Shown: in pieces, positions 2,358 to 3,974 of the stretch
Layout of the letters: each line of letters starts with the position of its first letter
Position numbering within the stretch: the stretch's first letter is position 1
From: Octopus vulgaris
Taxonomy: Eukaryota
Assembly: GCA_951406725.2 (NCBI GenBank)
Contig: OX597824.1
Span: forward strand, 40,238,001 to 40,302,000
Length of the DNA: 64,000 nt
Direction of reading: 5' to 3'
Made by a program: the position numbers and the translations under genes
The notes under the pieces: model-generated
Databases searched by the model: none
Told to the model about the DNA's origin: nothing
What the model saw: only the letters and a program-made list of their open reading frames with translations

Positions 2358-2882
2358 ATCTATATATATATATATATATATATATATATATATAGAGAGT
2401 TTGTATGTGTGTGAGTATGCGTGTGTGTGTGTGTGTGTGTGTGTGTGTGAGTGCGTATGTTCCTTATGCATTCCAAACCGAGTTGCCGTTTTTAACGTAT
2501 GGGGTATCAAAAGATTCAGTAAGCTTTTAACTACCAACTAAACTATATTTTCATTCACTTATTTGCATTGCAAAAATTAAGATTATCATTATTGTTTTAG
2601 TCACCTATTGTAAACGACATCTTTTATCACTGCCACCACAACGACGATGACCTCACATTTTCTATATGAGTTCGAGCGTTCGTTACGTACGTTAGGCTGA
2701 TGACTGATAAGTATATGTGTGTGACGGTGTTTGCCTGTCAGTATGCATACATTTTTGTGACGACTGATACACACACACATCACACCCAGTAGTGAAACGC
2801 GCAGATATTGAAAGTTACAACGACTAGGTTTCATTAGAAACTGAAAATAGTTTCACACTTTCAATTTCAACCAAAATTACAG

Positions 2883-3426
2883 TTCTATATTTAAGAGATG
2901 AGGAATTGTGTACATTATTTAAATTATTTACATTTGACAGATATTTGTCTTCATCTTGTTTATTGTTAACACAACGTTTCGGCTAATATACTCTCCAGCC
3001 TAGTGGTTAAGAGCGAGGACTACTAACCCCAAGAGTTCGATTCCAAGCAGTGACCTGAAAAATAATAATAATAATAATAATAATAATAATAATAATAATA
3101 ATAATAATAATAATAATAATAATAATAATAATAATAATAATAATAATAATAATAATAATAATAATAATAATAATAATAATAATGAATAATAATAATAATA
3201 ATAATAATAATAATAATAATAATAATAATAATAATAATAATAATAATAATAATAATAATAATAATAATAATAACATCGAAAAATACCTTAGGAATGAGAA
3301 CTCAGGTTCGAAATTTCCCCAACACACCTGATGAAGGCTGGAGGGTATATCAACTGAAACGTTGTGTTAACAACAAACAAGATGTGGACAAATATCCTTC
3401 AAATATAAATAATGTAAATAATGTAA
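2883..3426 (+). mobile_element. tRNA-headed, hammerhead-bearing element with an inverted partial copy of its 3' end (Penelope pLTR/retrozyme-like)
   Basis: 2883-3001 is largely the reverse complement of 3335-3425. tRNA-like TAGTGGTTAAGAGCG...GAGTTCGATTCC at 3001-3044. Internal (AAT)n. 10-bp direct repeat AAAATTACAG at 2873-2882 and 3427-3436. Confidence 0.75.
3324..3367 (+). ncRNA. Minimal (dimer-type) type I hammerhead ribozyme
   Basis: ACAC-CTGATGA-A-GGCTG...CAACT-GAAAC-GTT-GTGT with palindromic AACGTT as stem III. The inverted copy has an intact stem II (GGCTG/TAGCC). Confidence 0.7.
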
Positions 3427-3974
3427 AAAATTACAGCGTTCGATTACGAGACTGACTATGTGTGAATAAGGAATGTAATGTTTCTCCGAATTAGTCACAT
3501 CAGTATTATAATAAAGAAAGTCGCTTAGGCGATCTTTTGTCTCTGTTTACAACTAAAATAACCTCGACAACTACGCGGGTCGCACAATTTTGAGGTCATT
3601 TTTGGACAGTATTTCAATTTGGTTCTGATGTTTCCCTTTCGTCCGATGTTTCACGCATGCGTAGAATTCGACTCAGACAAGCATTTATGAAAATGCAAAC
3701 ATAAATATTGTATTGAAATAAGCCACAACCAAAATAATTGCATTAAAAGACATCCATTTCTCTATAAGTTATGAGAAAATACAGTCACTCTCTCTCTCTC
3801 TCTCTCTCTCTCTCTCTCTCTCTCTCTCTCTCTCTCACGCACAAAAATATGTATGCATATGTATTTATAGGCGAAGGTAAAGAATATGCATACCTGGTGT
3901 TTAAGGCTAGGGCAACGCTGAAAAGCGGGTGGTGTACGTATTCTTTTCCTCCGCCTATTTATGTTCGTGTATAT

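Follow-up and report, generated by a model that had tools for sequence, protein, structure and literature searches.

Penelope-like elements (PLEs) insert with a tail of 30-40 bp at just one end and, on the 5′ side, a truncated copy in inverted orientation, according to the available text of bioRxiv 2021.04.23.441226. A PLE protein was shown in vitro to nick the two strands and to extend each of them, starting at two sites inside the RNA that delimit this tail; in the element PAc, the hammerhead overlaps the ORF start, RT starts 111-118 nt into the ORF and unprocessed RNA is used (available portion of PMC11167929). The same portion describes the PLE mechanism as not validated past first-strand synthesis, and the origin of the inverted copies, the one-sided tail and the TSD of PLEs is an open question in the field. 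The minimal hammerheads (min-HHRs) of metazoan PLEs have a bulged base after A9, a palindromic and loopless stem III, and a short helix I (PMC4209133, text as available). SINEs are defined by their LINE partners in the accessible part of the SINEBase description (PMC3531059).

In the window, by which we mean the whole 64-kb stretch of Octopus vulgaris DNA that was analyzed, we identified a 564-bp element (TSDs included) that is likely a SINE moved by Penelope and not by the usual LINE partner. Its parts are as follows.

2783..2882, no strand assigned: host repeat, the insertion target; it forms a separate depth plateau at 2820-2870, and other copies include the 10-mer.
2873..2882, plus strand: left TSD, possibly 11 bp with 2872; its last 4-5 nt (2878-2882) also match the long 3′ end of the family.
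2878..2910, minus strand: PLE-type tail of ~33 nt, the long 3′ end of the family, in the inverted arm only.
2911..3001, minus strand: inverted 5′-truncated copy of the 3′ region, with stem II, GAAAC and GUU and without CUGAUGA.
3001..3060, plus strand: tRNA-like head, clipped inside the A box, with a B box at 3035-3044.
3061..3273, plus strand: (AAT)70 spacer, precisely (AAT)70.7, with one additional G near 3184.
3294..3425, plus strand: 44-codon open frame, E 3e-9 to P0095 (pairwise), likely a relic of a PLE ORF start.
3324..3367, plus strand: minimal type I hammerhead by motif anatomy, as defined in PMC4209133.
3335..3426, plus strand: direct arm, ending at the short 3′ end of the family, which is marked by loose ends before 2923.
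3427..3436, plus strand: right TSD.

A preliminary description of this locus had given the same order of parts, namely, inverted arm, clipped tRNA-like head, (AAT)n, minimal hammerhead and tail between 10-bp TSDs, and our analysis bore it out together with the TSD itself, AAAATTACAG, at 2873-2882 and 3427-3436. A match of at least 10 nt between two random 30-nt zones of the window occurred in 16/20000 draws (6/2904 for AT-rich draws). The 10-mer is target sequence, because copies of the flanking repeat (at least three contig pieces among those listed) align from 2783 through 2880-2882. The inverted arms, 2904-3001 versus 3335-3432, are 87% complementary over 98 nt and form RNA hairpins of ~98 bp; the left arm extends to about 2878 and thus includes a stretch of family sequence, ~33 nt long, with no counterpart in the right copy. 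Compared with the read majority over 92 nt, either arm deviates at 6 positions of its own, with none in common among the variants listed, which fits one old insertion event. The element is single and interspersed, with no tandem arrangement, no second TSD bounding the head and no second copy of the family elsewhere in the 64-kb window.

Since ARAGORN (0 genes) and Rfam (0 hits at gathering level, only chance matches with E>1 near the element) recognize neither the head nor the hammerhead, the identity of both rests on motif anatomy. The head, which we take to resemble tRNA-Arg, has an anticodon-like loop at 3020-3026 and a 6-nt deletion at 3032-3034, and the head letters of the family that are missing here are supplied by loose ends before 3001 and behind 3034, in which the A box is complete. 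In other copies, the letters between arm and head are often the missing 5′ head, GCCCACGGGCATATGGCG by the loose-end consensus; thus, this copy was clipped inside the A box. The folding z-scores of tail and head were unremarkable, and the sense strand of the tail has no stable stem-loop (0.0 kcal/mol). RNA reads came from both strands about equally, with no end or start pile-up listed (a weak test on fragmented cDNA), and therefore gave no sign of a Pol III transcript.

Half or more of 14 words sampled from the tail were present in 14 runs from 8 studies and 4 coded organisms, rows with fewer than 5 words being left out of this run search. The search listed no RNA holder on record, which we take as evidence neither way. 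From the 24 runs listed, we took four, namely, three contig sets and a single raw RNA run, for alignment to 2780-3064, where 12,893-15,068 contigs aligned per DNA run, along with 5,990 RNA reads. Summed over contigs, the depth reached 2-4 million for the arm as against 0.4-0.9 million for the head, with single listed contigs at about 20-100; this sum is no copy number and is taken solely to mean that the family is very abundant. Head depth was about a fifth to a quarter of tail depth in the contigs, so either many tail copies are headless or heads were under-counted. The genus is evident from translated copies, with P0001 and P0024 belonging to Octopus bimaculoides and the P0059 cluster to O. 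sinensis and O. vulgaris.

The preliminary description had raised the possibility that head and tail occur independently, by chance nesting. In this reading, as we framed it, an unrelated tRNA SINE and a microsatellite would have landed between two inverted PLE fragments. This reading draws on the tail being several times deeper than the head in contigs, and none of the reads or contigs displayed spans head, spacer and tail. Against it stand the joints found in other copies. Among the best 15 of 47 joint rows, nine lead directly from arm to head, two skip within the arm, and four have head and tail on opposite strands; with a further three arm-to-head joints from a separate table, 12 such joints have arm lengths other than that of this copy, and four joints recur in two runs. 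Moreover, the protein P0024 starts with a head-derived and then a tail-derived peptide in one frame, and the head is without a second TSD. Chance nesting is, in our judgement, extremely improbable.

The same joints bear on the inverted arm, described previously as stopping just before CUGAUGA. In this copy, the stop does lie one base after the core, but elsewhere the arm stops at 12 other positions, spanning 2897 to 2957, and loose ends behind 3001 run on into the core in other copies (agreement 0.75-0.89). Because the stop varies and is not needed at that place, a special role for an arm stop beside CUGAUGA was rejected.

Two 3′ ends of the family, ~33 nt apart, were identified. At the long end, family sequence halts at 2878-2880, where the depth jumps and the flanks are unrelated and AT-rich (agreement 0.40-0.54); at the short end, loose ends before 2923 finish in the letters preceding the tail (the loose-end evidence comprises the 24 rows listed of 820). 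This insertion has the short end on its right and the long end on its left, and the use of one of the two 3′ ends on each side is the PLE 'tail' signature. Accordingly, a tail within the 30-40 bp described for PLEs is present at one end only (2878-2910, in the left arm), and an inverted 5′-truncated copy lies beside the 5′ end both here and in 12 other joints.

These ends also bear on an ordinary LINE-mobilized SINE, with an RTE or CR1 partner, a PLE fragment and an inversion of the L1 twin-priming style. In favour of this reading, the window is rich in fragments of LINE ORFs, the protein searches gave no PLE partner from Octopus, and the transcribed autonomous element reported in Octopus is an RTE LINE (PMC9115989, text as available). 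Nevertheless, the element is without a simple-repeat 3′ tail and ends inside a PLE-like region at two fixed sites. In addition, L1 twin priming inverts sequence without duplicating it, whereas the 3′ region is duplicated here, and we consider a LINE partner quite improbable. Long inverted arms and a 10-bp TSD could likewise belong to a DNA-transposon derivative, i.e., a Mutator- or hAT-type MITE with ~100-bp TIRs and a captured piece of SINE; long inverted arms with a TSD in the 10-bp range are in the size range of Mutator. However, the termini differ by ~33 nt, copies differ in arm length, and the arms show homology to the start of a PLE ORF; such an origin, already strongly disfavoured, has virtually no probability in our estimate.

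The one-sided tail also separates two ways in which a PLE could have inserted the element. With a single primer, the inverted arm of the same PLE-mobilized SINE would have arisen by template switching or by copying of the new cDNA. The arm-head junction shares only 1 base, and the lack of validation of the PLE mechanism beyond first-strand synthesis leaves room for such a route. The left arm, however, has ~33 nt of tail that the right half is without; it was therefore not copied from the right half, and a second RNA-templated start is needed. We regard a single primer as rather unlikely, and priming from both strands is the reading that we follow below.

The hammerhead core consists of CUGAUGA (3328-3334), GAAAC (3356-3360) and GUU (3361-3363), with the cut after 3363; in the inverted copy, the cut site is between 2973 and 2972. 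Stem I has 4 bp, A3335 is bulged, stem II occupies 3336-3355, and stem III is the loopless palindrome ACGU. The intact core, the bulge after A9, the palindromic 15.2-16.2 and a helix I of 4-5 bp are traits of PLE min-HHRs, and the family majority, in which the core is conserved, shows these traits as well. The stable helix II of such motifs is lost in the right copy, where changes at 3353 and 3355 replace G10.1-C11.1 by a G-U plus a C/A mismatch and the forced energy of the broken stem is +2.5 kcal/mol versus -3.8 in the left arm; in the left arm and the read majority, a 5-bp stem II is paired. One stem I pair has also been lost at 3323 in this copy relative to the loose ends of the family. 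The ACGU self-duplex reaches no more than -1.7 kcal/mol, and two window copies folded together do not adopt the hammerhead structure. Absence of cleavage even as a dimer had been named previously as a refutation, which is not valid for this copy: since its stem II is decayed, a negative cleavage assay on it refutes nothing. An amino-acid proxy for stem II covariation was set aside as confounded by CpG decay.

Both halves of the insertion read through the cut site, which the left arm overshoots by 29 nt, and the ends lie 60-95 nt past it. Because both halves cross this site, the template was likely uncleaved and ribozyme cleavage probably unused here; we infer that the hammerhead is a carried PLE motif and not what sets the insertion ends. 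This bears directly on a spread as a non-LTR retrozyme or in the manner of schistosome SM-alpha, in which multimeric RNA is cut and monomers circularize and are copied into tandem arrays. Such a spread would agree with the conservation of the hammerhead core in the family majority and with the tandem units in 24/115 proteins of a sister family described below. However, neither end lies at the cut site that both halves cross, the loopless stem III is of the PLE type and not canonical, and no RNA end pile-up was listed in the weak test mentioned above. This route is highly unlikely in our view.

Other repeats and coding remnants were observed in the window. A different minimal hammerhead is located at 11307-11284 (minus strand), with CUGACGA, a bulged A, an intact 4-bp stem II and the same ACGU stem III and GUU site; its unit, 11366-11179, covers ~190 bp between two (TA)n tracts and looks, by its motifs, like another PLE-type fragment; 600 bp upstream of it there is a stretch resembling a tRNA. 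B boxes also mark three further tRNA-like heads, at 11975-11910 (minus), 2047-2120 (plus) and 12715-12790 (plus), which likely belong to other SINE families; the first and the third fold better than shuffles (z -2.75 and -3.88, respectively). A near-perfect (AAT)654 tract at 13570-15531 has edges without the head or tail of this family. Additionally, broken LINE-type RT ORFs are present at 6442-9300 (minus), 41869-44691 (minus) and 35397-36463 (plus), and exon-like pieces of an AAA ATPase, presumably a 26S proteasome regulatory subunit, at 56283-62544 (plus).

The open frame at 3294-3425 matched 36 proteins, nearly all of them spurious translations of repeats. As a real gene it was rejected, the hits being scattered singletons without Pfam families, bar exonised pieces and one chance EGF protein; the frame is likely a relic of a PLE ORF start. 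A single-sequence search for longer proteins gave no candidate, and a profile built from 18 sequences matched 338 longer proteins, the best 120 of which were listed. Most of those listed belong to a sister family (ENA records P0002-P0159) with a body of ~120 nt unlike that of this family. Between the window frame and the sister unit, the identity is 39-50% over 32-44 residues (E 3e-9, pairwise), P0001 aligns end to end with the sister unit, and the long ends coincide. Both 3′ ends recur in the sister proteins, with 60 long and 33 short among the 93 scored.

Among 154 proteins examined, 115 were sister-type, the peptides being counted with loose regular expressions. Tandem units were found in 24/115, inverted-arm peptides upstream in 35/115, an A-box peptide in 4/115, and B-box peptides, in two frames, in 6/115 and 4/115, which jointly fix GGTTCAATCC. 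The A-box and B-box peptides sit at a fixed distance upstream of the 44-codon hammerhead unit, and the sister repeat appears, from these translations, to be tRNA-headed as well.

The preliminary description had called for an autonomous PLE sharing the tail. In Octopus, none was found in the protein searches (338 profile matches, 120 listed), but the sister unit does run in frame into a shared PLE-type RT ORF in 3/115 cases (P0039, P0095 and P0154). With P0158, which was one of 4 hits in a set of 39 candidates, this ORF shares 87% identity across 71 aa. P0157 and P0158 have DKG, a motif called diagnostic for PLEs in the source text available. P0158 also has GLNF, and P0157 scores 0.96 to DUF8422 and RT-named clusters. 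Both proteins go on into what we take to be the early RT motifs. Pfam gave no RT hit for P0156-P0159, no GIY-YIG was seen in the ORF fragments, which end before the endonuclease, an Atlas search with P0154 75-234 returned only scores <0.9, PDB sequence searches returned only non-significant matches, and the AlphaFold model of P0157 has a pLDDT of 33.6. DNA pattern scans of viral, metagenome and prokaryote collections gave 0 matches. Judging from these alignments, the tail was likely borrowed from a Penelope-type retrotransposon, although its connection with a PLE ORF is an indirect one, by way of translated sister copies. A hammerhead unit leading in frame into such an ORF mirrors the layout of PAc. 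In P0095, the PLE ORF is likewise preceded by the sister body, and the autonomous element may accordingly have this body, or even the head, in common with the sister family.

Pieces of the family are also present at the N-termini of Octopus gene models. P0024 is dystrobrevin beta X1 of O. bimaculoides, the P0059 cluster (with P0160-P0162) corresponds to LOC115224785 of O. sinensis, also in O. vulgaris, and P0001 likewise has an N-terminus from the family; these pieces may be exonisation or annotation errors. In the RNA reads, 690 share a loose end at 2923 with a non-random-looking consensus (agreement 0.56), perhaps from one highly expressed locus with a short-end copy. At 2943 and 2966, A>G and T>C occur in ~15% of RNA reads versus 0.1-3% of DNA contig depth. 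These changes could be A-to-I editing, which we do not claim because C>T, G>A, C>G and C>A are also RNA-enriched elsewhere and matched DNA was lacking.

Considering the two 3′ ends, the recurrent joints and the homology of the tail to a PLE-type RT unit, the earlier proposal of a non-autonomous, tRNA-headed element moved by Penelope machinery is supported. Mobilization by a PLE is, in our assessment, highly probable, and double priming in particular is moderately so. In such an insertion, Pol III would make an RNA from the A and B boxes and would read on to a flanking T run, since 3001-3426 contains no T4 and the first lies at 3535. A PLE protein would bind the tail, a presumed relic of its own pLTR and ORF start (by homology and by the available portion of PMC11167929), and would nick both strands ~10 nt apart. 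Each 3′ end would then prime inside the RNA at one of two starts ~33 nt apart, maybe helped by short matches between primer and template. At the right junction, 6/7 nt match the continuation of the family, and the last 5 nt of the left 10-mer equal the long end; these short matches at one locus hint at primer-template pairing, in contrast to what was described in vitro. Of the two halves, one extends as far as the A box and the other ends after ~124 nt, at 3001; they meet back to back with a single base in common, and the target 10-mer flanks the pair on either side. As a whole, the explanation that we prefer is quite probable: an abundant Octopus repeat, composed of a tRNA-like head, an (AAT)n spacer and a hammerhead-bearing tail, was inserted here once and long ago, its RNA being likely a Pol III transcript that a Penelope/Poseidon-type RT-endonuclease likely copied in trans.

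A broader proposal, to which we assign an even chance, is that PLEs have SINEs of their own: tRNA-headed and Pol III-driven elements that end in a PLE pLTR/ORF-start signal. They would add a third class of retroelements derived from small RNAs to the LINE-partnered SINEs and the LTR-type Cassandra/Helenus. There would be at least two families with different bodies, and thousands of short insertions would record priming on both nicked strands at two internal start sites. If true, a high-copy family dependent on a telomerase-related PLE enzyme extends the LINE-bound definition of SINEs, and a PLE RT start inside the RNA explains how a SINE can do without poly(A) or a repeat at its end. Complete PLE insertions are long and poorly assembled; the present ones, at ~300-600 bp and in large numbers, lend themselves to a bulk tabulation of the two junctions and the TSD. 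The family may additionally feed host transcripts, through its pieces in gene models and its RNA hairpins. The literature surveyed, mostly titles and abstract openings with passages of papers that include PMC4918200 and PMC8969392, and excluding Ohshima and Okada 1994, Lunse et al. 2017, the SINEBase supplements, Repbase and Dfam, contains neither a PLE-partnered SINE nor this octopus hammerhead. The PLE partnership is likely the new part, and the family itself may already have a name.

With tRNA SINEs that have LINE-derived tails, the element shares a length below 700 bp, a tRNA-like head, a 3′ region that is likely partner-derived, a high copy number and a TSD; unlike them, its partner is likely a PLE and it has no simple-repeat 3′ tail. 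In the terms of SINEBase, it is thus short (564 bp, under 700 bp), non-autonomous, high-copy and interspersed, and in place of a LINE partner and a simple-repeat 3′ tail it ends in a PLE-homologous region, at two sites with unrelated flanks. Octopus tRNA SINEs, named OK, OR1 and OR2, were reportedly described by Ohshima and Okada in 1994. OR1 or OR2 is cited as a CORE-SINE in the available passages of PMC4758252 and PMC4824008, whereas our element has no room for a CORE domain. Cassandra, Helenus and Ajax similarly have a piece of a small-RNA gene grafted on a non-LINE, non-autonomous retroelement; they are LTR elements, and the word 'Penelope' has 0 occurrences in the text available of PMC10886601. 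A Pol III-type promoter and a type I hammerhead are combined in short non-autonomous repeats in the schistosome SM-alpha and Sj-alpha too, whose canonical active hammerheads free monomers from tandem transcripts (PMC6765202 and PMC8490949, in the excerpts available); in our element, the hammerhead is of the loopless PLE type, 60-95 nt separate the cut site from the ends, and the insertion bears a tail and an inversion typical of PLEs. The non-LTR retrozymes, as described in the accessible part of PMC7229834, have canonical type I hammerheads in tandem, cut-site-bounded units, and the element has neither.

The closest likenesses are with PLEs. Chlamys elements such as MRC1 are non-autonomous PLEs that share 3′ sequence with an autonomous PLE, as our element probably does; they differ in that no tRNA head is mentioned for MRC1 in the available text (bioRxiv 2021.04.23.441226) and that most Chlamys elements there are without hammerheads. 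The hammerhead of the element agrees with PLE min-HHRs in its minimal type I form, bulged base, palindromic 15.2-16.2 and position at the ORF start (PMC4209133, text as available). Unlike EN+ PLEs, the element is without an ORF of its own and is not tandem, and its A/B-box head and (AAT)n replace the Pol II pLTR promoter. Like EN+ PLEs (Penelope/Poseidon, and PAc of Anolis in the available portion of PMC11167929), it has a pair of 3′ ends separated by 30-40 nt, a truncated copy inverted on its 5′ side, a TSD and a probably uncleaved template.
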